Below are positions 42,926 through 59,421 of a stretch of DNA of 64,000 bases, in pieces. This stretch comes from Candidatus Omnitrophota bacterium (lineage in GTDB: Bacteria; Omnitrophota; Gorgyraeia; Gygaellales; JBFMHM01): positions 102,111 to 166,110 of the forward strand of contig JBFMHM010000002.1 of assembly GCA_040753015.1 (NCBI GenBank), given 5' to 3'. The notes beneath the pieces are model-generated. The model saw nothing but the letters and a program-made list of their open reading frames with translations, had not been told where the DNA came from and ran no database searches. Positions within the stretch are counted from its first letter, which is position 1; every line of letters begins with the position of its first letter. The position numbers and the translations under genes were made by a program.

Positions 42926-43561
42926 TCAAGAAAAAATGTGCCGGATTATTTCATCACTTAATGCCTGCCTCGTAACAACCATTTTAATATTCTTAGTACG
43001 ATCTATTATATAAGCAATATGTTTTCTTTTTTTAATCTGTTTTAAATCGTTAGCAACAACTAAATCTGAATTATTTTTTAGTAGATCTTTATAAGAAGAA
43101 TTAATCAGCTCATCTTTATCTTTATTAACTTCTAATTTAAACTGGACTAGAAAAATTTTTGGATCATATTTTTTAATCAACCTGATAATTTTAGGTGTTG
43201 GAATGAGTTTTAAACAAAGATTATTTTTACCAGATTCTATTTTTTGTGCAGAAATTTTTTCAACCCTATAATCGCTTACTGCAGCTAGATGAATTACAGC
43301 ATCATATTTTTTTGTTTTGAGTTCTTGCTCTATTAAAGTAAACAGCTCGTCAAAATATTTAAAACGTTTAATTATAAGATTTGGATTTTTAAGGGTAAAG
43401 CTTTCAGTGACTGGGCCAAGCAATAACGTAACTTTTGCGCCTTGTTTTAGCGCAGTTTTCGTAATAGCAATACCAGTTGCGCCGCTTGAAATATTTGAAA
43501 TTACACGGACTTTGTCAATTGCAACCCATGTTGGGCCGCAAGTTATCAAAATTTTAGGCAT
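42926..43561 (-). CDS. coaB: phosphopantothenate-cysteine ligase (CoaB) as a separate gene
   Basis: It has the CoaB fold ([24 protein letters not shown]). It overlaps the coaC stop by 8 nt. Confidence 0.75.
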
Positions 43562-44129
43562 GCTTAATAATAGTGGATAAAATCAAATCGGCATCTGCCA
43601 TTGCCCCTTTACCAACAGTGCCGCAGGCAAGGCGTGAAATGCGTGGTTCAATAAAAATATATTTTCCGCCTGCTTGCCGGACAGGCAGGGGTATCTTTTT
43701 TAGCGATGCGATATTTTTTTGCATAATCTCGTTTTCCCACATATTTGTATTCATAGCAGGAGCGATTAAAACTTTAGTTTTTTTTGGCAAGGATAAAACT
43801 AATGCCGCTAATAAATTATCGGCAAAACCATAAGAAATTTTTGAGATTATATCTGCTGTGGCTGGGGCAATCACAACTAAATCTGCCCAGTTAGAAAGTT
43901 CAATATGCTGGCAATTAAATTCTGATATGGGTTTAAACATATCAGTGTAAACCGGATTTTGCGTAAGCGACTGAATTGTTAACGGAGTGATAAAATTACA
44001 CGCGTCAGGCGTAAGCACTCCCTTGACATTATAATTTTTGTGCTTTAAAACACTGATTAAATCACACGCCTTATAAGCAGCAATGCTTGCAGTTATTCCA
44101 ATAATGATGTTTTTATTACTAGTAGGCAT
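43554..44129 (-). CDS. coaC: phosphopantothenoylcysteine decarboxylase flavoprotein (CoaC)
   Basis: The flavoprotein N-terminus is IIIGITASIAAYKA. Confidence 0.8.
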   Translation of the reverse strand: MPTSNKNIIIGITASIAAYKACDLISVLKHKNYNVKGVLTPDACNFITPLTIQSLTQNPVYTDMFKPISEFNCQHIELSNWADLVVIAPATADIISKISYGFADNLLAALVLSLPKKTKVLIAPAMNTNMWENEIMQKNIASLKKIPLPVRQAGGKYIFIEPRISRLACGTVGKGAMADADLILSTIIKHA

Positions 44130-44133
44130 ATGT

Positions 44134-44382
44134 TTAAGATGGCTGGGCTATTCTATGTAAAAGCTCAGAAATAAAAGTTTGATACCTTATACCGAGCCGA
44201 TAAGCTTTATGTTTAATGTTTTCTAGGTCTTGCTTATTTACGCGAATATTTAAAACCGCATCTTTCTTCCTTGCAGATATAACACTAATAATTTGTTCGT
44301 ATTCCCGCTTATCCACAGGAACAAAATGCTCAAGATTATCTTCTATCGCCCGCTCTTCTTTTGTTAATTTAATCTTTCTCAT
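44134..44382 (-). CDS. BrnA-like antitoxin (RHH/CopG-like, DUF4415-type)
   Basis: The C-terminal GIRYQTFISELLHRIA resembles the BrnA G.GYQT.IN.ILR.Y motif. It overlaps the upstream toxin by 14 nt. Confidence 0.55.
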   Translation of the reverse strand: MRKIKLTKEERAIEDNLEHFVPVDKREYEQIISVISARKKDAVLNIRVNKQDLENIKHKAYRLGIRYQTFISELLHRIAQPS

Positions 44383-44659
44383 GGTTTCTCCTGTTTTTGT
44401 AAAATTTCGTTAACTTTCTGCTTGGATATATCGTCTTCAAAAATATTATTTCGCCATCTATTACATACGGCACAGCCCACAGATAACCTTTATACTGATA
44501 AATAAGAATTTTCTGATTTTCTCTATTTGGATGCCTACGTATGTCTATTAGCTTTGAAGCAATGATTTCTTCAAACGAAACGCCGCGCGTTTGCTTAAGA
44601 CGCTCGCTCTTTAATTGGCTCCATCTAATATCTTTCATACATTTATTTTGTATATACAA
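44369..44659 (-). CDS. BrnT-like toxin (DUF497, RelE-fold ribonuclease)
   Basis: Conserved elements are W....NE.NQ.KHGVSFEE and RIISAR-like IFLKTIYPSRKLTKFY. The toxin-before-antitoxin order matches BrnTA. Confidence 0.55.
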   Translation of the reverse strand: MYIQNKCMKDIRWSQLKSERLKQTRGVSFEEIIASKLIDIRRHPNRENQKILIYQYKGYLWAVPYVIDGEIIFLKTIYPSRKLTKFYKNRRNHEKD

Positions 44660-44695: not shown

Positions 44696-47600
44696 TTAAT
44701 GATTTAACGCTTCGATTTGGATGAGGCTTAGATCAATGCCGCCAAGGTTAACGGCGCCTTGCGATGGCTGACTTAATGCCTCGGCTGGGCTTTCGCCAGT
44801 GTAAACTCTTGCTCTCTCCTCTAGCGACAATATCGTGCCTGCACGATCGGTTATTTCATCGGAGGAAGCGCCGGCGCGCTGCAATAGCGCCTCGACTGCT
44901 TGATTCCAGTCGGATTGCCTCTTGACTTCTTGTTTTGCCATTATTGAAATAATAACATCTGAAATAAACAATACTATATTACTTATGCCAATAAATCCTA
45001 AAACAATTGGCATCGCAGAAAAAGAAAAACCTAAAGCTATCCCGCCCACCGTTAAATTAGCAAACGGCCCAGCTAATAAAGTAGCTACTTTTTTCCAAGT
45101 TGAAGCTCCCTCATAATTAATATCTGCGCTAGACCAAAGGTTGATCGAATTCACTTTTAATCCAAATAACTTCGCAGTTAAAATATGAGCTGCCTCGTGT
45201 AAAGGCAAAGCAACTACAAAAGCGCTAAACCGTAATAAATTACCCCGCCCGCCCCCCTCTCTTAATAACGCTGCTGTAATTGAACGCGTAGGCTCTCTTC
45301 TATCTACAAAAATAACACCCTTTTTCTTAAAAAAATCATAAAGCTTCTGCTCAGTATCGTAAATCACGCCTAACCTTTCATTATTACTATTTCTATCTTT
45401 ACGAATCGTAGCATTTCTAATTTTATTACCGTTTAAATCGCCATGAAACATTTTTGCGGAAAAGAGATCTGCGTCGGAGAGATCTGCAAAGGAAAGATCT
45501 ACACCACGAAGGTCTGCCTCGGAGAGATTTGCCTTAAAAAGGCTTGCGGTCGAAAGGTCTGCATTGTAAAGGATTGCGCGGGTAAGTCTTGTATTAAAAA
45601 AGCGTGAATTACTAAGGTTTGCTCCGGTAAGGTTTGCATTAAAAAGGTTTGTACGGGAAAGATCTGCGGAGGAAAGATCTGCACCGATAAGATTTACGTA
45701 GCTAAGAATTGCGTTAGTAAGAATTGCACGGGAAAGCTTTGCACCAGAAAGATCTGCGTAGCGAAGCTTTACGCCGGAAAGATCCTTACCAGAAAAATCA
45801 AATTTTGAAAGATCAAGCCTATAAAAAACAGCATTTTTAAAATAAGAAGCTTCGGATAAACTCTTCAAAGCCCTCACAAATTCATCATTAACTACAACTG
45901 TTTGGCCATCTTGAAGAGGCGAGCTTCTAAGATAATCTTGCTTGGCTTGATTAAATTCATCTATTTTTTGTTCTAAAGTTTTACTTGAATCGTTTAAAAT
46001 TTCTGTGAGCTGTTGTAATGTTTCCGCCCAGCCTTCTGGCGAAACGGCTGTAGGCCCGGCAGCTGACGGATCTGCTGGCGGAGTTACATCCGGAGGTGCT
46101 GGTGGCTGTTCATCCTGAGCCTGTCGAAGGACTGGCGCGTCAGCGGCTGGTGCTACAGGCGCAGGAGTTCCAACTTCAGACTCAATTACCTTGCCATCTT
46201 TATCTACTCTTTGCCCTTGCTCGTTAACAAAAATAATACCACGTTCTTGAGTTAAATATCTATATAATCTATCCATATCAAGAGTAACTTCTTTTAAACT
46301 TTTATAGCTTCCTGAATCCAATATCATCGCGTCTTGAATCTTATCTTTATCTAAGTCAGAAAATAACATCCTTGCTCCGGAAAGGTTTGCGTTGGCAAGG
46401 CTTGCGCCGGTAAGGGTTGTACCGCAAAGGTCTGCATTGGAAAGGTTTGCATTAGTAAGGTCTGCGCCAGTAAAATCTGCACCGCGAAAGTCTGCGTAGG
46501 AAAGAACTGCGCCGCGAAGGTCTGCGCCGGAAAGGTCTGCGTTGCGAAGGTCTGCGTAGGGAAGAATTGCGCCGCAAAGGTCTGCGTAGGGAAGAATTGC
46601 GCCGCGAAGGTCTGCGCCGCGAAGGCCTGCGTAGGAAAGAACTGCACCGGAAAGGTTTACGCCGGAAATGTCTGCGTTGCGAAGGTTTGCGTTGCAAAGG
46701 TATGCGTTGCGAAGGTTTAACCTTGAAAGATCTAACCTATAAATAGTACTACCTCTATTATAAAAACATTGTTCTAAACCTTTTATAGCGGTTATAAATT
46801 CAAAATTAACTGCAAGCACCTCACCTTCACTAAGAGGCGAACTTGCAAGAAAATCTTGCTTAGCTTGGTTAAACTCATTTATTTTTTGTTTTAGGGTTTT
46901 ACTAGTATCGCTTAAAATTGCTGTAAGTTGTGTAAGCACACCATCCCAACCTTCTGGCGATACGGCTGTTGCGTCATCTGCAGCTGGCGGATTAGCTGGA
47001 TCCGCTGGCGGAGCTGACGCAGGTGGCTCACCTCGTGGAACCGCAGATGCATCAGCGGTAGGCGCAGCTGCAGCTGAAACAGCACCGTCAATCACATTAC
47101 CATCTTTATCCACAGCTTGCCCTTGCTCGTTAACAAAGATAACACCCCGACTGGTCAGATAATCATACCGCTCTTGTTTAGTTGAATAAACATCATCCAA
47201 TCTTCTCCAAGTCCTAGCATCAATAAATAGTAAAATACCATTAATTTTATCAGTGTCTAAATCACTATAAAACATAACTGTTTGAGAAAGGTCTGGCCCC
47301 ATCTCTTTTTTTCTAGAAATGTATTGCGCGTAAGAAAATATTGCTCCTGATCCCCGACGTGCTATTATTTCAGCATTGCGTCTTAAATACACGTCCTCGG
47401 AAAGATCAAATGGTGCGAAAAGTCTTACACCAGAAATATCCTTTCCAGAAAAATCTAACCTAGAAAGGTCGAGTTGAATACAAATGGCGCTAGCTTGTCT
47501 ATTAAAATACCATGTCCGCTCTAATCTTCTTAAGCCATCCGCAAACGCATCATTAACTTTAAATGTTTGGCTAGATTGAAAAGGAGAGCTTCTAAGATAA

Positions 47601-50600
47601 TCTTGCTTGGCTTGATTAAATTCATCTATTTTTTGTTCTAAAGTTTTACTTGAATCGTTTAAAATTCCTGTGAGCTGTTGTAATGTTTCCGCCCAGCCTT
47701 CTGACGAAACGGCTGTAGCCTCTGCCGCAGGCCTCGCCGTTTCCTGGCGGGCTGGTGACGATGGATCTGCGGGCGGCTCGGCTGGTGGCGGTGCAGGCGC
47801 GTCAGAGGCTGGCGTAGCTAATTTTTCTCTTAAACTAGCAATTAATTGTTCATTATTCGCGCTTTCGCCAGATTCTTTCAGTAAACGAATAAGCTCATTA
47901 ATTACTGCTTGCTGTTGTAATTGCTCTAGAGTAAAACCATTATTAAGAAGCATTAAAATAATTTTAGCAGCCTTATCATCTGTTAGATTCGTTTCGTCTG
48001 CAATAGTCTCTAAAAAATTACCCATTTGTCTATTTACGCTATCCAATAATGCCATATCTATACCTTTTTCTTTTAATAATTGTGCCTGGTTTTGGACAAT
48101 AGCAGTATAGGCGTTGACTTTAAGTAAAGGTTCACTATCAGGAGTTCTTATTGCCATAGCAATAGCATTTGCAAATTCACCTGTTTCTGCACAAACTTGG
48201 ATAATTAAGTCAGAAGCTAAGAGTCTTTTGTAATCGTTACTACTGTCATTGGGAATTTCTTCTGCCGCAGCGCGTGCATTTTTAAGGTTTCTTTCTATTT
48301 TTCGTTTTGGTATTTTTGCTTTTATCTGAACTCTAGCAACAAGAGAATAGGCATTGGTTTTATAAAAAGGCTGGTCCTGATTATCGGGAATTTTTTTTAT
48401 CAAATTAATAATCAATCGCAAAATATCTTCTACTTCATTCATCGGCCTACCTATTTTTGCCTGGGTTTCGGCAATTATAAGAAGAAGGAGCGCTTTCCAA
48501 TATTCACCAGGTGCGAAAGTTCTTTCCGTTAACGTAGAAGCCAATCGCAAAGTATCTTCTACTTCATTCATTGGCCTACCTATTTTTGCCTGGGTTTCGG
48601 CAATAAATGTATAAGCTCTAATTTGGTCATCATAAGTTGCATCTGCATATCTTGTTGGAAGTTTTTCTGCTATATCAAGAGCTTTATTAATGTTTTCGAT
48701 TATTTCTTCTGTTGGCCTACCTGCTTGTGCTTGAGCTTGAGCAATAGAGGTATAGGCTTTAATTTGTGCCCAAGGGTCATAAATGCTTATTTCTTCTACC
48801 ATAATAATAGCCTTGTTAAGACTAGTAGATATTTCATCTTCCGGGCTACCTATTTCGATTTTAACTTGGGCGATAAATGCTTGGACGGCAGCTTGCGATG
48901 CACGATTAAGCGCAGTTGCAGCGATATCGGCTTTATTAATGTTTTCGATTATTTCTTCTGTTGGCCTACCTGCTTGAGCTTGGGCAATGAGTGCATAGGT
49001 CATAGCCTTATCAGGATCATCATCCTCCATCCTTATTACCAGGTTGAGAGCATCATTAAATCTGTTTAACGTTATAAAAGTTTCGATAACAGTGATGGTG
49101 GCTTTTTCTTTTTGGGAAGAATCATCAAATCTTTCTGCTGCTGCGATAGAGGCTAAACGTAAAGCTAAATCTTGCGTATGAATAGTTTTCAAAATTTCTG
49201 GAGTTAATACTACTGGTTCTCTTGCAGGCATTCCTGGATCTGCCGGCGGTTCGTCTAAAGGCGCTTGCGTAGCGGCTGATGCAACTAGCCCAGGAGGAGC
49301 TGGCGCGTCAGGGGCTGGTACTACAGGCGGTGTCGTCGGTTCGTTGCCAAACAAAATTGGAATTCGCGTGGATCTTGGAAAAGTTGGGCTGTCGCCTGTA
49401 CTAGGCGTAAGCCCGCAACTTACTTCAATCGCAGTTTTTGAAACACCTAATTCTCTCATTAAAAAATTAGCCAAAATGCCTTGTAACTGAGAGTGGCCTT
49501 GCAATGCTTTAAGCTGTTCTGTTGCAGCTTGAATAAATGCGGTTTTAATTGATGCGTCTGATTGTTGCGGCTCTGCCGCCTGCCCAGCACTTTGAAGCCT
49601 TGCGTGTTGTTCAGAAAAAAGCGTATGCGCCCGGCCAATAACATAATTAGAAACTCTTACGCCTGCTAACGACCCAGCCAAAACACCAGCCAAACGTTGC
49701 GCCACAAGAGGAACAGCGCTTCCAGCTCCGCCGTTTGGCGCAGTTGGTGAAGCAACACTTACAAAACGTAAAATTGCATCAGGCAGCGCACTTAATGCTT
49801 CTCTTTTTGCTTTTTCTATTTCAAGCATTGTTGCTCCAACTGGCACGCCGATAACTAAAGTTGCAGCCGGCGCAGTATCTGGCGTTTCTACTTCTCCGAT
49901 ATCAACATCCGCAGCAAGTTCAACACCATCTGTCGGTTCAAACCTCACAGCTACTTGAACCTCGGGAATTTCGTCAGTTGCTGGAACTGTGACAGTTTTT
50001 GCATCACGATTTGCTAACTCCACTCTAACTGCTCGCGCTCGTTCTGGAGTTAACTGCTCGAACGTTCTAGGAGCCTGTGGAGTAACGCTAGTTCCACCGG
50101 GTGCCATGCCTACCGGCAGGCAGGCACTAGGATCAGGCTCTGGCCTTGGCCCAGAGTCAACCCATTTTACTTTTTGCCGCATATCAGGGTCAGCTAAAAC
50201 AGTATCTGTTGCATTGGGTGAAACCAAAAACCATTTGCGGCCGCTAATCTCTCCGTCGCAAGCCACAGCGCCTGCTTCAATATCTCTTGCTAAGGCGCAA
50301 TGCCCCAACATCACAACTAAATTATTTTTTTCGCCGGAAAAAAATAAATCTTTAGCTTGTCTGCCAGCATATCTCTGGCAAACTAACGAACCATTATTTT
50401 GATAAATCAACTGGCTATCGCCTGAAACTCTGTCAATTAACTCAAAACTAAAATTTGCATCAGACGGTTTATACAAGCGAATAATCAGCTCTGAATTATC
50501 TTTCTTTAAATATACCTCTATTTTACCGTGTTCATCCTCTAAAGTTTTTCTAATATAAATAGCATTTGGCTCTTCTCTATCCCTAACTTCATCCTGCCTC

Positions 50601-53600
50601 CACTCTAAAGCCTTAAAAATTGCTTCAACTTTCTTTTCTTCAACTTCTTGATAACCGTCAATAGGAATATCGACAAAAAGCTTAGTTGTATTTTGCTCTG
50701 TCTGGTTTGCAAAACTAAATGTTGCGCCTAATTTGCGCAATTCATTTCTAACCCTAAAGTAAGGCTCTAATGCGTGATATTCTTTTCCTTGCATACATAA
50801 ATTACCTAAGTCGCCTTCGCCTGCCTCGAATAAAGCAGTTTTTAACCACTTACGAAGTGGTGCAGAAAAACTTATTTCTAAACGCAAATGATTGCCAAAG
50901 CTAAGCCAACTAACAGTAATTCCGCTATCTGCCAACTCACTTTGCCAACGCTCTATATCATTATTGTCAATTTGTCCAGCCTCTGGTGGTTGGACAAATT
51001 GATCCTGAGCACCGTCGAAGGATCTTAATCTTACGCCAAGCTGAGGCTGGCGATAAACTTCAGCCAATAAGCGGCCTTCTTGATTAAATGCGTGGCGCAT
51101 TGCGGTTTCTTTTTTGGCAAGCGTCAACCACTGGCTAACTAATTGCATTGCAAATCTAATTTGTTGTTTATTTTTATCTGGCTTAGGCACGCTAGTTTTT
51201 AATCTTTGCTTTTCTGCATTCCATTCTCTATCAGGCCTGCAAAAATTAATATCACTAGTTAAGAATGTCTCTGTCCCAGCCATAGCCAAAGCTTCACCTC
51301 TTGTTTCTTCAATAGCCATCCAAGTAATTTCAAGCGCCTCGGTTACAGCTTCTTGGGTAATCTCACTAATTGGCCTTTGGTACAGCTCTTCTAAATTCCT
51401 CATCTGCATTGCTTCAACTTCTGTCATCTCTTGGCCAACAACCCGAGCAACTGCGGGGATAAATTTAAACCTTAAATCTCCGTCCACAACAAAAACCTCA
51501 ATAGCATCACCATCATTCCAAGCATCTCGTTCATATAATCCACTGGCAAATTTAGTTAAATTTTCCTTAAACTTATCCAACACATTAGCAAGCGGCCGCG
51601 CTCCTTGGCCTGCCTCAAACCCAAGCTTGTAAAAATAATCTAGCACTGCCGTCTTATGTTCCGGGCTAACTCTAACCTCAATTGGATAAAACTTATTTCT
51701 TGCATCTTTATAAACCCAATTTTTATAGGGCTTTAGTTTTGCTTCTGCCATTGCCTTAAACATTGCCTCATCCATAAATTTAAACGGAACTATTTTATCA
51801 AGCCGCGCTAAAAATTCCGGACGGTATTTATATTTATGATAAGCTGATATTTGTGCATCTAATTCGTCGTAAAAACGCGTAAGCGCTTCTGAGTCTGTTT
51901 GTGCTGCATCAAGTGCCTTTTTGTATTGCTGGTAAGCGTCTGGCCCACCTGTTTGAGGTGTTAAAAAACGGCCTGTTGCCGCGTCATAAGTTTCTTCAAC
52001 GCCGCCGTTTGAGGTAAAGATAATAATACACTGGCTAAAAGAAACTGTGTTGCCTTTTGAGTCAGTTAAACGCCCATCGTCGGTAAGAGACAATAAAAGC
52101 ATCAATATTTCTTCTTTGTCAACGCGATGCAATTCATCAAATACGATTACACTTTTTGGGTTGCGTTTTACTTGACTGGTCAACCAATTTTCTGAATCAT
52201 CATGCCCAACATATCCGGGCGGTGCACCGATTAATCTCGTGCTAGAATCCATATCAGCCATAGGCACATGAATATAATTATACCCTAACTCGCTAGCTAC
52301 CACCCTTGCTAATTCTGTTTTACCCACACCTGTTGGCCCAGAAAATAAAAAGCTGCCTACAGGTTTATTCGGTCGCTTTAAACCGGATTCAGCACGATAA
52401 ATTGCACTAACCACTAAATCGACCGCCTCATCTTGGCCAACTAAACGGGCTTTAATACGCCCTTTTAAACTTAACAAATCACTAGTCTTTCTCTGGCTAA
52501 CAAGCAAAGAATCAACGCCGCGTTTAATTAAAAATGAGCGCACATCTTCTATTGTCGGGGTAAGCTTTACATCCTGCCTGTCAACACTGCGCCAACGCCT
52601 AATTTCGGCAAGTGATTCTGCTTGTTTTACTGGCTGGCTTCTTCGTTTTGCTGCCTTTATTTTTTCAGCTAAGACACGAGCAATATTACGTTTTTCTTTT
52701 ACCGGTTGTTTTTGTAAACCTATCTCTTTTGCTTTTGCACTATAATGCTGATCGAGAAATTCAGCCAATAACATCTTATGGTCTTCGTCAGCTAAGGCTA
52801 TAGCAAATAACGACAAAGCCTGCTCCATTAATTCAAAAGGCATTAAATCAGTTGTTTCTGGCAAAGCCCCAGTTATCGGCGATATATGCTTTGCATAATA
52901 CGCCCTTCGTAACACAAGCCACATATCTTCAACTTGCCCAGCCTCTGGCGCTTGGGCAAGTTGATCTCGAGTCCCTGCGAGAGATCTTTCTAATAAATCA
53001 ACACGGCTAAACCATTGTTCATAAAGCGGGTCTCTTAACACAGCCTCTGAACTAGTTGATAGAATTAATCTCCCCTTCTGCTCATCTTTAAACGCGCTTA
53101 AGAATTGCCCTAAGTGGAACTCCGCGCCAGTTGGTAAACCATCTCTGCCTTGAGCGCTAATACTAGCTTTTTGAAAACTATCTAAGTCCAAATAAACAAC
53201 CGTGCGTATTCCTTTTTTCTTATCATCGTCGGCAATTGCATCTAAAAGCCTGAGCACAGTTGCCTCAAACTTTCCTGCCAAACTAAATGTAGTTGCAAAA
53301 CTAGAAAACTTTAAACTAAGAACTCTGACATTTTCTTGGCCATTCAATTTTCCCTCACAAGCTAAGCGGCTATATTGCTGGACTAATTGCTCGGTTGCTT
53401 TTTGGTTTTTTGCCCAAAGAAGAGGAAAATTTCTGCGTGCTTGAGCTTGAATTGATAAAACGCTTACCATTGTCTCTGGGTTAATACTTTCTTCGGGAAT
53501 TCTTCCTTGGCTAGAAAACGCCGTCAGATTTACCACCATTTCATTTAATTCTTTTTCTTGCTGTTTTATCTTATCAACTGAAGCTTCATCGGCATCTTCT

Positions 53601-56600
53601 GGAATGGGTAGGGAAATTTTAAGTTTATCATTATTCCAAGCAGCATTAGGCGGAACCTGTGCAACAGGTGTTGGCAAAAGCGCTTGCTTTGCTTCTAAAT
53701 TAGAAGCAGCTAAAATTGCTCTTGTTGTTGGATGAAGCGCCTCTTGCGCTTGTTGCCTAACTACTTCACCTACCGGCTCAGTTAATTTAAAAGTAATTTT
53801 TCCTTCACTATCAGCACTAACTGAAATTTGAGTTCCCTTGGGATATTTTTTTGCAACTAAAATTTCTGCTAATTGCGAACCAATTAAATTATCAATAGCA
53901 CGAGCCATAGGACGCGCGCCATTAACCGCGTCATAGCCTGCCTTAAGAATTACCTCTTTTGCCGCATCATCAAAATTAAGAACATAACCTTGGTTAGCCA
54001 GTTTTTCTTTTAACATATCGAGGATAAAATCGCGGATTTTTTCAATTTCTTTTTTGCGCAAACGCTTAAACACCAAAATTTCACCGATACGGCCTTGCAT
54101 CGAATTTATAAAATAACGATTAATTCTTTTCCTTATTTCATCTTGTATGCTTTCTTCCATAACATCAAGTAACTGACTACGGCTTGCACTACTTAAATCT
54201 TTACCAGCTTCCTCGCTATGCCTATTTACTTGGCTAATTAAGCGGCAAACACCCAGCCTTTCTTCCCTTGCCTTAGACGTCATTACCTTTAATTTTTGAA
54301 TATAATCCCATAGGCCGCCAAACGCCTCTTCGCATTGCCTGCGTTCTTGCGGCAGCAATCCAAATTCATCAAGCCTAGCAAATCTTCCAGCTTCACCTTG
54401 TTTGGGAAATCGATCTGGCACACAATCAGGTTTTTGCGCCCGCAAATATGCCTTTAATGCCGAATCTCTATTTGCAACAAGCGGGCTAATCCAAAATTCC
54501 TCAATATTATCCAAAACATCTTCTAACGTCAGGCGTTCAGGAAGAAAATCTAATTGGACGCTGTTTAATGCCCTGCTAAATACACCGCCCGGTTTAAGCG
54601 TTTCCTCAATAAGTTCAGCCACTTCATTAAACACATCTTTATTATATGCACGAAGCTGAATAGCTGCCTGCTGCAACCTTTGGCGCTTAGCAGCTGCAAC
54701 ACGTCTTCCCATTTCAGGATCCATTGCTTGCAACTCTTTCTGTGGTTCATCTTCAATAGCTACTTCTTTACCAGCTTTTTTGTATTCATCAATTTGCTTT
54801 TCTTTTTCTGTAATTTGACTCTGCAATCTAGTCCTTTCAGCATCGACACTGGCCCTGTAAAAAGCAATCTTAAGCTCATATAATTCGATATATTCACCAA
54901 ACACATCAATAAGTTGCTTAGTGTGTTTAATATGTTCTAAATTTAGCTTAACATTTTGTTCAAGAGAATTCTTGTATTCAGCTTGCTGGCGCTTTAAAAG
55001 CACGAGCAACTGCTCGGCTTTTCTATGCTCGTCGGTAATTTCAACCCTAAACCATGAATAATCACTTGCCGCAAGCTCTGTCTCGTCTTGCGCCTGAGTA
55101 AACTCCTCATCACTCATTAAATCTATTGCATCCATTGCCCGATATGCGTCGTAAATTTCCGGAGTCATGCCTAAATTTGAAGTCATTGCAATTAAGTGAT
55201 TAGTTGCCGATAAAGTTTCTCCTGTTGAACTTTGTGTTGTGCCTGTATCAAATAAATCATATAAATTTTCTAATACATCCGGATGCGCCTTTTCAAGTTC
55301 ATCCAATAAAAGAACACCAATAGGCGAGGCTCGTAAAATTTGCACTAATCGCCCGCCATTTTTATCATAACCAACATAACCTTGCGGTGCGCCCATAAGT
55401 TTTGTTTTAGCAAATTCATCTTGCAGCTCTGCCATATCAATGCGGCCCATTTTGCCGTCAAAAATAAGCTCAGCAATTGCTTTTACAAGCTCGGTTTTTC
55501 TACGCCCGTTGGGCCTGCCAACATAAAAACACCAATTGGTTTATTTGGCTCTTTTTGTCCGTTAACAAATAAACGAATTTTTGCTAAAATGGCATCGACT
55601 ACATGTTCGTGGCCAACATAACGCTTTGCTAAATTTTCTTTAAATCTATCAACGCGCGCTCTAATATCACCGGTTAATAAGCTAACTGTAGTTTGCGCCT
55701 CTTTTGCCAGCGCAGTTAAAACTTCTTCTTCGCTAATTCTTACGGATGGGCCTAAAGTTGTATCTACATCGCTTGCGCCCGCCATTACCATTACCCAATA
55801 ATCCAGGCGGCCAGTTAAAAATTCAACAAGCTCTGGTGTGTTAGCCTGCTCTAACTCGCCAATTAAAGCCAAGGCTCGGCTTCCGGCATAAGCTCTATCT
55901 AAATTACTCCTGTATTCTTGTTTTTTATTTTTATCAACTAAAAGTTTCTGAATTAAATCTATTGCAATTTCCCTTTCTGAAGCTTTAGGCAAGAATTTTT
56001 TAGTATAACCCATAATCCGCTTTAAAAATTCAAACGCATCATCGCTTTCAATTTTTAAATTTAAAAGCTCGTTATGCACGGTTTTAAACCACGGTAACCC
56101 CTCTTCTAAAAGCCGCAAAATTTCATCTGCCTCTTTTTCGAATTCAGGAGAGCTAGATAGCTCGTAACGTTGAGGATACTCCATAATTTGAGATATTTCT
56201 TTCCATTTGTTTCTAGGAAATACCGCCTGAATTGTTTTAGGCTCACCGCCAATAATTACAGGAATTGGGCTTTTAAGAAGCTCATCTAATAACCACTCTA
56301 AGCGCGAGCCAAGCTTAAACTTCAAACTCAAAATTCCCGCGTATTCTTCAGCATCAATATAAAAAGCTAAATTACGGCGCGTGCCTTTTTTTTCTGCATC
56401 GTGATACACCTTGCGCATATTGCTGACAAAAGCGCGAACAACCTTTTCAAAACCATCTGCCTGCAAAAACACTCCGCCGGCTAATAATTTTTTAATATCT
56501 AATTTTAAAATTTCTAACTTTTGTAAAGAAACTGGCAATGGGCTGTCATCAAGGCTTGCTTGATAAGCCAAAGAACGTATTGTCTGCTCTACTTCTCTCG

Positions 56601-59421
56601 GATGGCCGATTAAAATAATATTATTATTACTTGTATTTTTAATTTCATCTAATCTATCTACAAAACCTTGATCTGGCCTTTGGTGTAAACTTAAACTTTG
56701 CGAAGAGCCTTCGAATGTTTCTATCTTGGAAAGATAAGCCATCAAGTTTTCTTCAGTTTCTCCTTCTCTGCCATCGTCTGGATATATAGGAGAATAAAAA
56801 TTACCGCCTACTAGAGGCGCGCCAATCATTGCTGCCATAGCAGCAAAAACATCATCGCCAGAAGAGGCATCACCAAAAAACTTAAAATAAAACCAGCGAA
56901 ATAAATATGCGGCCGGAATTAATAATAAAGGTAACAATAAAGATTTTAATATTGTGGTTTTTGCAGGGCCACTGCCTGGCCTTGGCGATTTTGGACCTTG
57001 ATCATCAGTCTCTGTTTCTGCTGCTTTTTTACGCAATGCGTCCCGTTGTTCTCTAGCGTCTGCGCTATAATCATGATGATGATCAGCATGAACAGTTCCA
57101 TCAGCGTGGCGATGCTGGCCTTCAGGAACACCGTGATGATGTGGATGTCTTGCGCCACTAACGTTACCATCGTGATCGCGGTGAATATGCTTTACAAGCA
57201 TCCTGTTATGTATTCTACCTATCCTAGCCTCTACTTCATTTCTCTTGCCAGCCTTAATTCTAGGCACTCTCGTGCTATAGCCATAACGGGTTTTTTCTAT
57301 TAAGCCTTTTTTAGAAAGTGCACGTTTAATAATTTCCTTTGCTTTATCTTTATCGTTCTCGTCTAACTTTCCTTCACCAATTGCCTGCTCTGCAATTTCA
57401 TCAGCCAACCTCTCAATTACTTCCGGATTATTTGTTCCGTTCTTTCGTAATTTACCATCATTTAAAATATTTAAAAGTCCTCTTGTAATCCAAGTGCGGA
57501 AATTATGCTCCATCGTAAGATCGCTGATATCACTATCTTTATCAGCTTCTTCAACTGACGTATTAATTTCATCTAAGATTTCATTTAACAGTTCCTCATC
57601 GCCTTTATCATCATCTTCATCTTTATCATCTTCATCTTCATAATCATCGCTATTTTTACGGCTATCTTCTATTTGTGCCAACCGCCACATCGGACCACAA
57701 CTCGCTCCTATTGAACCCTCGCTAACATCTACATCTGTATCTTCAGCGATTTTGTTGCCCCTTTTTTGCTCCTCTACTACTCTATTATGCGCTTGTATCC
57801 AATTTAAACCTTGTTTGCGATAATATATTTCGCGTTGTTCGTGCAACAAAACATCAGTATCTAAGGTACTTTGAAAACCAACTATACGCCAAACATTATC
57901 TGTACCTTTAAAATTAATTGCCTGTACGCCATCATCTAAGTTAATTGCCCATCTTTTGAGCACATCAATAATTCTTTGCGCGTCTTGATCCCTAACATTA
58001 TCATTAATCGCAATAATTCGGTTTCCCACATCATCTGTATTAGTTTTAACTGCCCCCAGCTTATCAAGCTGTGTAATACAATATTCAACAATCTCTCGAT
58101 TACTAGCGTTTTGTGATAATTCAGGAACTTTCTTACTTCTTGCCAAAACTCTTAGAATTCTTAAAAGATTTTTTAGATTCTTTACATCAGATACTTCTGC
58201 GCCAATATCTTCTGGTTGCCCAATGCTTACCGTAATTGTAACTGGCACCCTGCCTGCCTCTCCCGCTGTTGCTAGCTGTGTAGGAATTTCTCCTGTTGGC
58301 GCAAAAAGTACACCGCCTGAGGCATAGGTGCGGCGGATTTTATGATTTATCGTAGGGGCGAAACCATGTTTTCGCCCATTAATTATAGGGCGATTACGCG
58401 GAATCGCCCCTACAACATCAACCAATTTGTATTCGCCTTTTGTTGAGTTTAGATAAGATTTGTAGATTTGTTCTGGTTTAAACTTAAGGTTGTTGGTTTT
58501 TTGGTAGGTTTTTATGAATTGCTCTAACTTTTCGCTTTTCGCTTTACTCTTTACGCTTTTTTTGTACCATTGTGCAAAAATGAGTGCTTGATATATTTGT
58601 CTAAGTGGTTCATAGGCTTTGTCTTGGTTTACTCGTTGAGTTAGTTCTGGGAGTATTAGTTGTTTTAGATGAGATTCACAATATTCCTGTAGTTCCTCAG
58701 TTCGTCTGTTCTTCAGTTCGTCAGTTCGTTTGTCATTGGAAATTGGGATTTGGGATTTCTCAAGGTATTCGCTTTCTAGAAGCACCTTGAGCGTTGCTTT
58801 AACTATTGTTATTGAGCTATCTGTCTCATAGACCCTTGCCTCATCTGGCACTATCCAGACACGAAAGGTAGTTGGTACTTTGTAGTTAGTAGTTTGGTTT
58901 TGTTGTTTTGGTCCTAATTTTAAATTTTGAGTTATAGTTTTACCTTTTTCGTTTTGAGTTTTTACTTCCAAAGTTTTGGCTTTAGTAAATACTTTATCCC
59001 AATAGGTTTTAGCATTTTTACCATAACCGGGTAATAATTCAAAGGCTGTGTCTTTCTTAAGCTTTAAATCTAATACTAAGAGCGCTTTACCTAAATCAGT
59101 ATCAGCTATTGTATTGCCGATGATTCTACTTGGGTCATTAGGGTTTAGATTAACCCAAAGATCTTTGTAGTCTATAGATAGGCTAGTAAAGAAATAATCT
59201 AGAAGTTCTTTGGTTTTAAGCTTCTTTTGTTGTTCTGAGAGGTTGCGAGGAAGAAAGTTGAAATTAAAATTAAAACCTGAATTTAGACTAAGCGAAACAA
59301 ACGAGGCGTTTGGGTCATGCACTTTTAGGCTAACAACTTGGCCAAAGCTAATACTCTGGCAAAGAAAGGTAAATGCCAAAAATAGACAAAAAATCCTCTT
59401 TATATGGTTTACTTTAATCAT
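44696..59421 (-). CDS. giant multidomain protein, about 4,900 aa as a single reading frame interrupted by one frameshift near 55.49-55.50 kb
   Basis: ORF 55483..59421 ends ...FMLAGPTGVEKPSL* and ORF 44696..55450 starts MGRIDMAE.. LMGAPQGYVGYD. Restoring one G (GTAGGAAAAACC) gives the contiguous ClpB-D2 sequence [30 protein letters not shown]. The domain content is listed in the findings. Confidence 0.7.
45923..46052. repeat. intragenic direct repeat of ~130 bp, near-identical (3 mismatches) to 47591..47720, with a diverged third copy at ~46845..46975
   Basis: I aligned the two copies by eye (agcttctaagataatcttgcttggcttgattaaattcatctattttttgttctaaagttttacttgaatcgtttaaaat...ccgcccagccttctg.cgaaacggctgtag). 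Each encodes SPEGWAETLQQLT.ILNDSSKTLEQKIDEFNQAKQDYLRSSP. Confidence 0.8.
46340..46760 (-). repeat. pentapeptide-repeat coding block (15-nt periodic tandem units, A(D/N)LxG-type)
   Basis: The protein reads NLRNADISGVNLSGAVLSYAGLRGADLRGAILPYADLCGAILPYADLRNADLSGADLRGAVLSYADFRGADFTGADLTNANLSNADLCG. Two further blocks lie at ~45430..45860 and ~47270..47520. Confidence 0.8.
55493..55503 (-). other. single-nucleotide frameshift site inside the Walker A codons (observed GTAGAAAAACC; GTAGGAAAAACC needed for GPTGVGKT)
   Basis: The downstream frame is open through the site and encodes ...[29 protein letters not shown]. The upstream frame terminates 3 codons later. Confidence 0.7.

Follow-up and report, generated by a model that had tools for sequence, protein, structure and literature searches.

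The window analysed in this study, a 64,000-nucleotide stretch of DNA from a Candidatus Omnitrophota bacterium, carries on its minus strand a giant gene (44696..59421) that is seen as two open reading frames (ORFs). The downstream frame, ORF B (44696..55450, 3,584 residues), ends in a small membrane domain, and judging from the sequence the last ~120 membrane-embedded residues are truly homologous, despite strong divergence, to the catalytic core of three helices in the site-2 proteases (S2Ps, family M50). This copy keeps H3418, E3419 and H3422 of an HExxH motif, plus N3491 and D3498 in the third helix, and we consider it fairly probable that the domain is a divergent S2P core with the canonical residue set, which would bind a metal and cleave in or at the membrane. 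Between an active minimal protease and a non-catalytic relic, two options that a preliminary description of this DNA had left side by side, we lean towards a motif-competent domain. All features of the giant gene are given in window coordinates on the minus strand, and residue numbers refer to ORF B unless the repaired full-length protein, which is described below, is named.

The preliminary description had noted an HExxHxxxAxxxG motif in a hydrophobic C-terminal segment, further hydrophobic segments behind it and no clear NxxPxxxLDG motif, and all three observations hold. The first motif falls within the segment LLRFSAFVVALPLHEAAHILTAKLFGLKVNSINLWSSADINYEGASTWKKVATLLAGPFANLTVGGIALGFSFSAMPIVLGFIGISNIVLFISDVIISIMAKQ of ORF B and lies in core helix a (FSAFVVALPLHEAAHILTAKLFG, residues 3408–3430, 45161..45229), where HEAAH (residues 3418–3422, 45185–45199) is the sole HExxH in ORF B. 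An AlphaFold2 (AF2) model places a helix here (model residues 28–42), so that HEAAH sits in a predicted helix within a hydrophobic segment, as in M50 proteins, and not in a soluble loop. Directly after this helix, again as in M50 proteins, AF2 predicts a β-hairpin corresponding to the membrane-reentrant loop (LKVNSINLWSSADINY, residues 3431–3446, 45113..45160; strands at model residues 46–51 and 55–59). The hairpin holds the Trp and Tyr that are invariant among the relatives described below (columns W53 and Y60), and this block has a predicted local distance difference test (pLDDT) score of 78–89. Core helix b (residues 3455–3477, 45020..45088) contains AGPFAN (45056–45073), an instance of the GPxxN or GxxxN motif of the second M50 core helix; LLAGPFANL (residues 3458–3466) lines up with GPxxx in classical M50 proteins, and its Asn and Leu do not vary among the relatives. 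Core helix c, reading MPIVLGFIGISNIVLFISDVIISIMAK (residues 3480–3505, 44936..45013), is likewise predicted by AF2 and carries an invariant N3491-x2-L-x3-D3498 (44957–44980) in place of the canonical third-helix motif. The core is preceded by PTRSITA (residues 3387–3393, 45272..45292), the window version of a motif shared by the relatives, and is followed by a hydrophilic tail of ~79 residues (44699..44935), which includes the invariant Asp of RQSDW, known as RGDVW in the relatives (44906–44920). The AF2 model of the domain as a whole (pLDDT 76, predicted template-modelling score 0.64) comprises the helix at 28–42, the hairpin at 46–59 and helices at 65–88 and 95–140, and the predicted fold is that of the S2P core.

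That the domain is an M50-like membrane metallopeptidase domain, as the preliminary description had proposed, is borne out by Pfam (marginally), by profile–profile comparison (strongly) and by the fold. A search with the last 334 residues matched Peptidase_M50 (PF02163) at 28.6 bits (E 1.1e-6), above the gathering cut-off of 27.2 bits, although only over profile positions 5–106 of 221. DUF3267 (PF11667, 24.8 bits) and Peptidase_M50B (PF13398, 23.8 bits) were both below their own cut-offs (27.1 and 26, respectively) and below the M50 score. NCBIfam gave no match for the C-terminal 200 residues. When an alignment of the window domain and its relatives (A1) was compared by hhalign with five classical M50 proteins (A2), the match had a probability of 98.7% and an E-value of 4e-16, extended over 105 columns and brought both HExxH and GPxxN into register. 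BLASTP against P0006, a classical M50 protein of 264 residues, gave 45% identity over 64 residues (pairwise E 3e-13), from HEAAH through the GPxxN helix; both comparisons thus align helix a with the HExxH of classical M50 proteins. With the AF2 model as the query, the best four Foldseek matches were SpoIVFB and the Methanocaldococcus jannaschii S2P (mjS2P), with probabilities of 0.87–0.97.

An HExxH that arose by chance in a hydrophobic C-terminal tail, unrelated to M50, is in our judgement scarcely credible. A lone HExxH would be expected ~0.1–0.2 times in a protein this long, as estimated from residue frequencies; k-mer based protein searches with the C-terminal 200 residues or with the clade alignment gave no homologues, the exhaustive phmmer search alone finding relatives; and PDB sequence searches were not significant with either the single sequence or a profile as the query. 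However, the profile–profile and fold results refute a chance origin, and it is excluded because the Pfam, exhaustive-search and profile–profile evidence agree.

The exhaustive phmmer search covered 1.84 billion representative proteins and returned 11 matches: the protein itself, five closer relatives (P0002, P0003, P0004, P0007 and P0010) and five ordinary small M50 proteins, which have both HExxH and NxxPxxxxDG. A metagenome scan with a third alignment (A3) returned one new member of the clade (L085) and classical RseP-like M50 proteins. P0002 (2,515 residues) has one copy of the domain, with HELAH, while P0007 (5,218 residues, locus L082) has three, and the L085 ORF, which spans at least 4,521 residues on a 419-kb metagenomic contig, has at least two identical copies; the other members are P0010 (867 residues), P0004 (737 residues) and P0003 (216 residues, on a 1.2-kb contig). 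The clade is small and apparently undescribed, and its sequences point to minimal cores that serve as modules, sometimes two or three per protein, of giant multidomain proteins.

Every copy has the motif (T)PS[ILV][TS]A, whose Ser and Ala are invariant, ~25–30 residues before [H/Q]ExxH (alignments A1 and A4), and an RGDVW-like motif after the core. Across the 8–9 copies, which share ~30–46% identity, 19 columns are invariant, including the Glu and second His of [H/Q]ExxH, the Asn of GPxxN, the N...L...D of the third helix, the Trp and Tyr of the hairpin and the Asp of RGDVW/RQSDW. This pattern is as expected for a working polar site in the membrane.

D3498 is the likely third metal ligand, to judge from conservation and position. 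N3491, L3494 and D3498 are invariant in all 8–9 copies of the domain. If residues are counted without gaps from the FSF that P0006 also has, N3491 coincides with the Asn of NLLPSPPLDGG in that protein, and D3498 comes one residue ahead of the LDG Asp. In addition, as read from the sequence, 8 residues separate D3498 from the polar end of helix c, and the distances of H3418 and H3422 from the end of the parallel helix a are 9 and 5 residues, respectively; because these distances to the helix ends are similar, D3498 appears to be at the right membrane depth.

Several observations weigh against a working S2P core in this domain. On the whole ORF, PF02163 scores 23.7 bits, below the cut-off, so that Pfam by itself is marginal, and the profile matches at E < 0.01 in just four of the eight clade copies. 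The Foldseek matches have E-values of 0.13–0.26, and the unsuccessful PDB searches mentioned above belong here as well. The third helix contains no canonical NxxPxxxxDG, since its Pro and Gly are missing and the spacing from N to D is 7 instead of 8; moreover, in the hhalign register D3498 pairs with the Asn of NxxP instead of the LDG Asp, and because of this pairing the assignment of the third ligand is unproven. AF2 places the PSITA segment without confidence (pLDDT ~50). The gene carries a frameshift, and no orthologue of the whole giant protein was found. Finally, six of the eight aligned copies have QExxH, with Gln for the first His, and HExxH is confined to the window copy and P0002; the shared function of the clade may therefore not be zinc proteolysis.

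On another reading, the domain is a pseudoprotease or a membrane anchor derived from the S2P core, which would have ceased to cleave and would staple the protein to the membrane, set its topology, or offer a substrate-like binding or membrane-thinning surface. We regard this as possible but rather doubtful. Parallels exist in the rhomboid family, namely, the iRhoms and derlins. Along with the predominance of QExxH and the loss of the LDG/Pro signature of the third helix, it would be supported by the recurrence of the module two or three times per giant protein beside other transmembrane helices, like a reusable anchor, by the absence of a PDZ or CBS regulatory domain and by the heterogeneity of the partner domains, which are mostly weak Pfam matches (adenosine-deaminase-like, ChaN/Tiki-like, DUF218 and P-loop). 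In contrast, the Glu, the second His, both Asn residues and the Asp are invariant in copies that are ~30% identical, and a domain that served only as an anchor would pay a price for burying charged residues. Pseudoproteases usually lose their catalytic Glu before any other residue, whereas it is kept here, and the full HExxH is kept in the window copy and P0002. Nor need Gln at the first position abolish activity, because a natural QExxH metalloprotease, Volvox VMP3 (QExxHxxGxxH), is active and prefers Cu (Heitzer & Hallmann 2002, as cited in bioRxiv 10.1101/2020.06.30.165720). By this analogy, QExxH need not mean inactivity in the clade. VMP3 is a precedent for an active zincin variant with Gln for the first His and bears on the QExxH copies; unlike the window copy, which has HExxH, it has a soluble metzincin fold unrelated to M50.

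Some features of the relatives stand apart from the catalytic question. The two sequence-identical copies in L085 are ~3,350 residues apart, an arrangement that implies tandem duplication of a very large segment inside a single ORF. A similar upstream region is closed by copy 2 and again by copy 3 in P0007. P0002 (residues ~60–480) and P0007 (residues ~130–520) have a signal peptide followed by a common N-terminal region (IQDxH ... GGFH), which weakly matches the ChaN/Tiki superfamily in P0007 and is absent from the window protein.

The two frames of the giant gene can be joined by a single nucleotide. The upstream ORF A (55483..59421, 1,312 residues) ends in GPTGVEKPSL followed by a stop codon, which is a broken Walker A motif, and ORF B starts in the middle of a Clp-type AAA+ domain; with one G restored, the two fuse into a single ORF of 4,908 residues, which reads GPTGVGKTELVKAIAELIFDGKMGRIDMAEL across the junction. 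The 1-nucleotide deletion (55499..55506) falls in the codons for Walker A (GPTGV-GKT) in the first Clp D2-type module, where the DNA reads GGC GTA G^A AAA ACC and GGA is expected (GTA GGA AAA ACC, ~55500). NCBIfam supports the join: the last 85 residues of ORF A correspond to positions ~417–612 of the ClpA/ClpB model, and ORF B continues the same AAA_2 module. Either an assembly artefact in the GG/A5 run or a genuine mutation that makes the gene a pseudogene could account for the deletion. A public protein, P0001 (3,593 residues), is 100% identical to the 200 query residues over its residues 3394–3593. The match sits at the C-terminus of P0001 itself, which suggests that its gene was called with the same split as the window gene.

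The repaired protein begins with a Sec-type signal peptide (full-length residues ~7–32), after which ~790 residues are predicted to be exported, up to one predicted proline-rich transmembrane helix (residues ~822–846) that would run N-out/C-in. The exported part includes a His-rich tract, HIHRDHDGNVSGARHPHHHGVPEGQHRHADGTVHADHHHDYS, just before this helix (window ~57000–57150, minus strand; ORF A residues ~760–800), which could be a metal-binding segment. Hydropathy and Hessa-scale scans showed a stretch of ~3,880 residues without a hydrophobic segment between the proline-rich helix and the three C-terminal helices, and they gave no transmembrane segment between full-length residues 846 and ~4730. 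Just five segments of the repaired protein have a Hessa-scale insertion free energy below 5 kcal/mol: the signal peptide, residues 823–841 and the three C-terminal helices. A weakly hydrophobic segment at residues 3184–3202 of the full-length protein was considered as a transmembrane helix and rejected, as it is missing from this list and its insertion free energy summed by hand is ~+6.8 kcal/mol; it therefore does not rescue a canonical topology.

On the preferred view of the domain as a divergent, metal-binding S2P core, the metal would be held by H3418, H3422 and D3498, and E3419 would activate water as a general base, as in S2Ps. The ~3,880-residue cytoplasmic stretch would have the domain as its sole membrane anchor on the C-terminal side, and the domain would cleave within or at the membrane. 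The AAA+ modules of this stretch must lie in the cytoplasm, and with no transmembrane helix in between, provided that none has been missed, the HExxH helix probably runs from the cytoplasm to the outside, inverted relative to that of RseP and SpoIVFB; Lys and Arg residues in the flanking loops, counted by eye, are ambiguous as to orientation. Presenilin and signal peptide peptidase offer an analogy for inverted intramembrane enzymes, and in the same way an inverted enzyme here would be suited to substrates that cross the membrane the other way round. It might act on the PSITA junction in cis, on the proline-rich N-out/C-in helix of the protein itself (full-length residues 822–846) or on a partner protein, and cleavage would release or process the giant protein.

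A bolder version of this scheme, which we consider unlikely, is that the three-helix module with PSITA and [H/Q]ExxH represents an intramembrane protease of a new class, one that forms part of its own substrate, that in the window protein is inverted relative to all characterised S2Ps, and that cuts giant polyproteins in cis at or near the PSITA junction or at their own proline-rich anchor helices. Such a role would account for the two or three occurrences of the module at module boundaries of giant proteins, and the switch between His and Gln might change the metal used. Docking of the PSITA segment as a β-strand, as expected of a cis-substrate, had no structural support in the folded QExxH copy, in which the segment has a pLDDT below 50 and no strand.

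The fusion to Clp-type AAA+ modules that the preliminary description had pointed out is present, in the form of two ClpA/B D2-type modules in the same gene. The first, interrupted by the frameshift, lies at approximately 55150..55740 and has GAPQGYVGY and VLLLDELEKA; its D2-small domain (approximately 53819–54061) is separated from the ATPase core by an insertion of ~360 residues. The second (51791..52366, ORF B residues 1029–1220) has the Walker A motif GPTGVGKT, the pore-loop region GAPPGYVGH and the Walker B motif VIVFDE. In Pfam, ORF B matched AAA_2 (E 4.7e-54, at the second module) and ClpB_D2-small (E 2.1e-20); the features of a D2 module (Walker A and B and the GYVG pore loop) are present twice, and the D2-small domain matched once. 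NCBIfam also matched ClpB and ClpA, with full-length model scores of 347 and 312 bits that are far below the equivalog cut-offs of 1232 and 993, respectively. By eye, a D1-like region whose Walker A motif is degenerate, such as IILIGHPREVEQTIRSL, can be recognised ahead of each D2-type module (51791–55740, minus strand). PADLOC matches to PDC-M37B and DolB are confined to the AAA+ region (the second module) and were read as generic AAA+ similarity, not as a defence system.

The same description had called this combination conceptually FtsH-like, and that part gained no support. Like FtsH, the window protein combines membrane segments, AAA+ modules and an HExxH metalloprotease motif in one polypeptide, and it can be imagined as a machine in which proteins are first unfolded by the Clp-type AAA+ rings, whose Walker A/B and GYVG motifs are intact in both modules of the repaired protein, and are then passed for degradation to the HExxH domain that the chain has in the membrane. 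We hold this to be highly improbable. Unlike in FtsH, the AAA+ modules are of the ClpA/B D2 type, the protease core is of the intramembrane M50 type where FtsH has a soluble M41 domain, and the matches that Pfam listed for the ORF at E ≤ 1 include no Peptidase_M41 (PF01434) of the kind that follows the AAA+ domain in FtsH. The AAA+ modules and the protease module stand more than 2,000 residues apart, with TPR-like and pentapeptide-repeat domains in between, one AAA+ module is broken by the frameshift, and Pfam found no Clp AAA+ domain in any relative that carries the module; the combination is not conserved among the relatives and, on the sequences at hand, is peculiar to the window protein. 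S2P active sites take membrane-embedded or extended segments, not threaded polypeptides, and the active site would probably face the opposite leaflet if the AAA+ modules are cytoplasmic.

Between the AAA+ modules and the membrane domain lie the TPR-like repeats, followed by three repeated units, each with a helical head and a pentapeptide-repeat β-helix (45428..47473, Pentapeptide E 9.5e-61), the last of which abuts the M50-like module. These regions also contain DNA repeats. A 187-nucleotide segment occurs in three copies, 72–91% identical to the reference copy, in the three pentapeptide units (45877–47728); units 1 and 3 are nearly identical at the protein level over the first ~40 residues shown (EGWAETLQQLT...); and a 63-nucleotide repeat pair with 97% identity is found in the TPR-like region (48413–48604). 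The repeats point to recent intragenic duplication.

The giant gene stands among housekeeping genes, with hflX and miaA upstream and toxin–antitoxin-like small ORFs, then coaC, coaB and mreBCD, downstream; the MreB of the window is 84–85% identical to sequences from metagenome-assembled genomes of Omnitrophota. The G+C content of the giant gene (~44700–59400) is 38–44%, compared with 30–35% in the flanking housekeeping genes, and no homologue of the gene or of the module was found by synteny at 80 loci around mreB in Omnitrophota and other PVC (Planctomycetes–Verrucomicrobia–Chlamydiae) genomes. The difference in G+C content from the flanks and the missing counterpart beside mreB in these 80 related genomes suggest that the gene was acquired or expanded in this lineage, with the caveat that Ala/Pro/Gly-rich linkers likewise raise its G+C content. 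Two overlapping small ORFs of 96 and 82 residues (44134–44659, minus strand) lie directly downstream, the second with a sub-threshold match to a CopG antitoxin; the giant gene of P0002 is also trailed directly by a ParE-toxin/antitoxin-like pair (L083, 17642–18177), which may be a coincidence or reflect a shared mobile context. CoaC (Flavoprotein domain) and CoaB (DFP domain) are encoded by two ORFs that overlap by 8 nucleotides (42926–44129, minus strand). A fused CoaBC is common in bacteria, and the separation may be a natural split or another frameshift. Rfam gave no match anywhere in the window.

Among known systems, the domain is closest to the S2P core, which provides its best fold matches (M. 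jannaschii S2P, 3B4R; Bacillus subtilis SpoIVFB, 8VJL; RseP, 7W6X, 7W6Z and 9J83; MEROPS M50/PF02163). The two have in common the order of an HExxH(xxxAxxxG) helix, a β-hairpin, a GPxxN helix and a third helix with a conserved Asn and Asp. Unlike S2Ps, the window domain consists of the three core helices only, in ~120 residues, with no extra transmembrane helices, PDZ or CBS domain; its third-helix motif is N-x2-L-x3-D and not NxxPxxxxDG; its hairpin has a conserved LWSxVxIxY signature of its own; its membrane orientation is probably inverted; and it ends a protein of ~4,900 residues, whereas S2Ps are free-standing enzymes of 200–450 residues. To our knowledge, all characterised site-2 proteases are free-standing enzymes that cut other proteins, namely, regulators tethered to the membrane, of which anti-sigma factors, pro-sigma K and SREBP are examples. 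PMC10202637 defines the S2P catalytic core as exactly three transmembrane segments and summarises S2P groups II and IV (Kinch, Ginalski & Grishin 2006) as uncharacterised M50 proteins without accessory domains. The window domain resembles these groups as a minimal core without PDZ or CBS, and its nearest classical relatives, P0005, P0006 and P0009 (193–264 residues), are small classical M50 proteins of the group II/IV kind. In contrast to groups II and IV, which stand alone and keep NxxPxxxxDG, the window clade no longer has the Pro and Gly of this motif, is embedded in giant proteins and has acquired two flanking motifs, PSITA before the core and RGDVW behind it.

The window protein can also be compared with the giant Omnitrophota proteins (Archaeovorins and the dockerin type; bioRxiv 10.1101/2023.11.21.568195 and 10.64898/2026.06.07.730766), with which it shares the phylum, great length, several transmembrane segments and a mosaic of domains. 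At ~4.9 thousand residues it is, however, small by the standards of those papers, and its Pfam matches include no SecA, dockerin or glycosyl-hydrolase family. For those proteins, the two papers (West-Roberts et al. 2023, 10.1101/2023.11.21.568195; the 2026 survey, 10.64898/2026.06.07.730766) propose that C39 and S8 peptidase domains possibly cleave the proteins that contain them. A term search of both full texts found no mention of M50, metalloprotease, ClpB or pentapeptide, and in 10.1101/2023.11.21.568195 "AAA" appears only as the legend entry AAA_5.

What the window adds to these systems is a minimal S2P core as a domain, sometimes repeated, of giant multidomain proteins, with flanking motifs of its own and, at the position of a metal ligand, natural variation between His and Gln. 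The clade has very few members, and its architecture and the coexistence of HExxH and QExxH copies would surprise a specialist in intramembrane proteases. It is almost invisible to Pfam, the QExxH copies being below threshold, and a dedicated profile would improve the annotation of giant genes. If the domain is inactive, it would be an S2P-derived pseudoprotease module, the counterpart of the rhomboid-family iRhoms and derlins. If it is active, it would provide a route for the processing or membrane release of giant proteins in Omnitrophota and similar bacteria and would widen the architectures, and possibly the topology and metal use, of the intramembrane metalloproteases.

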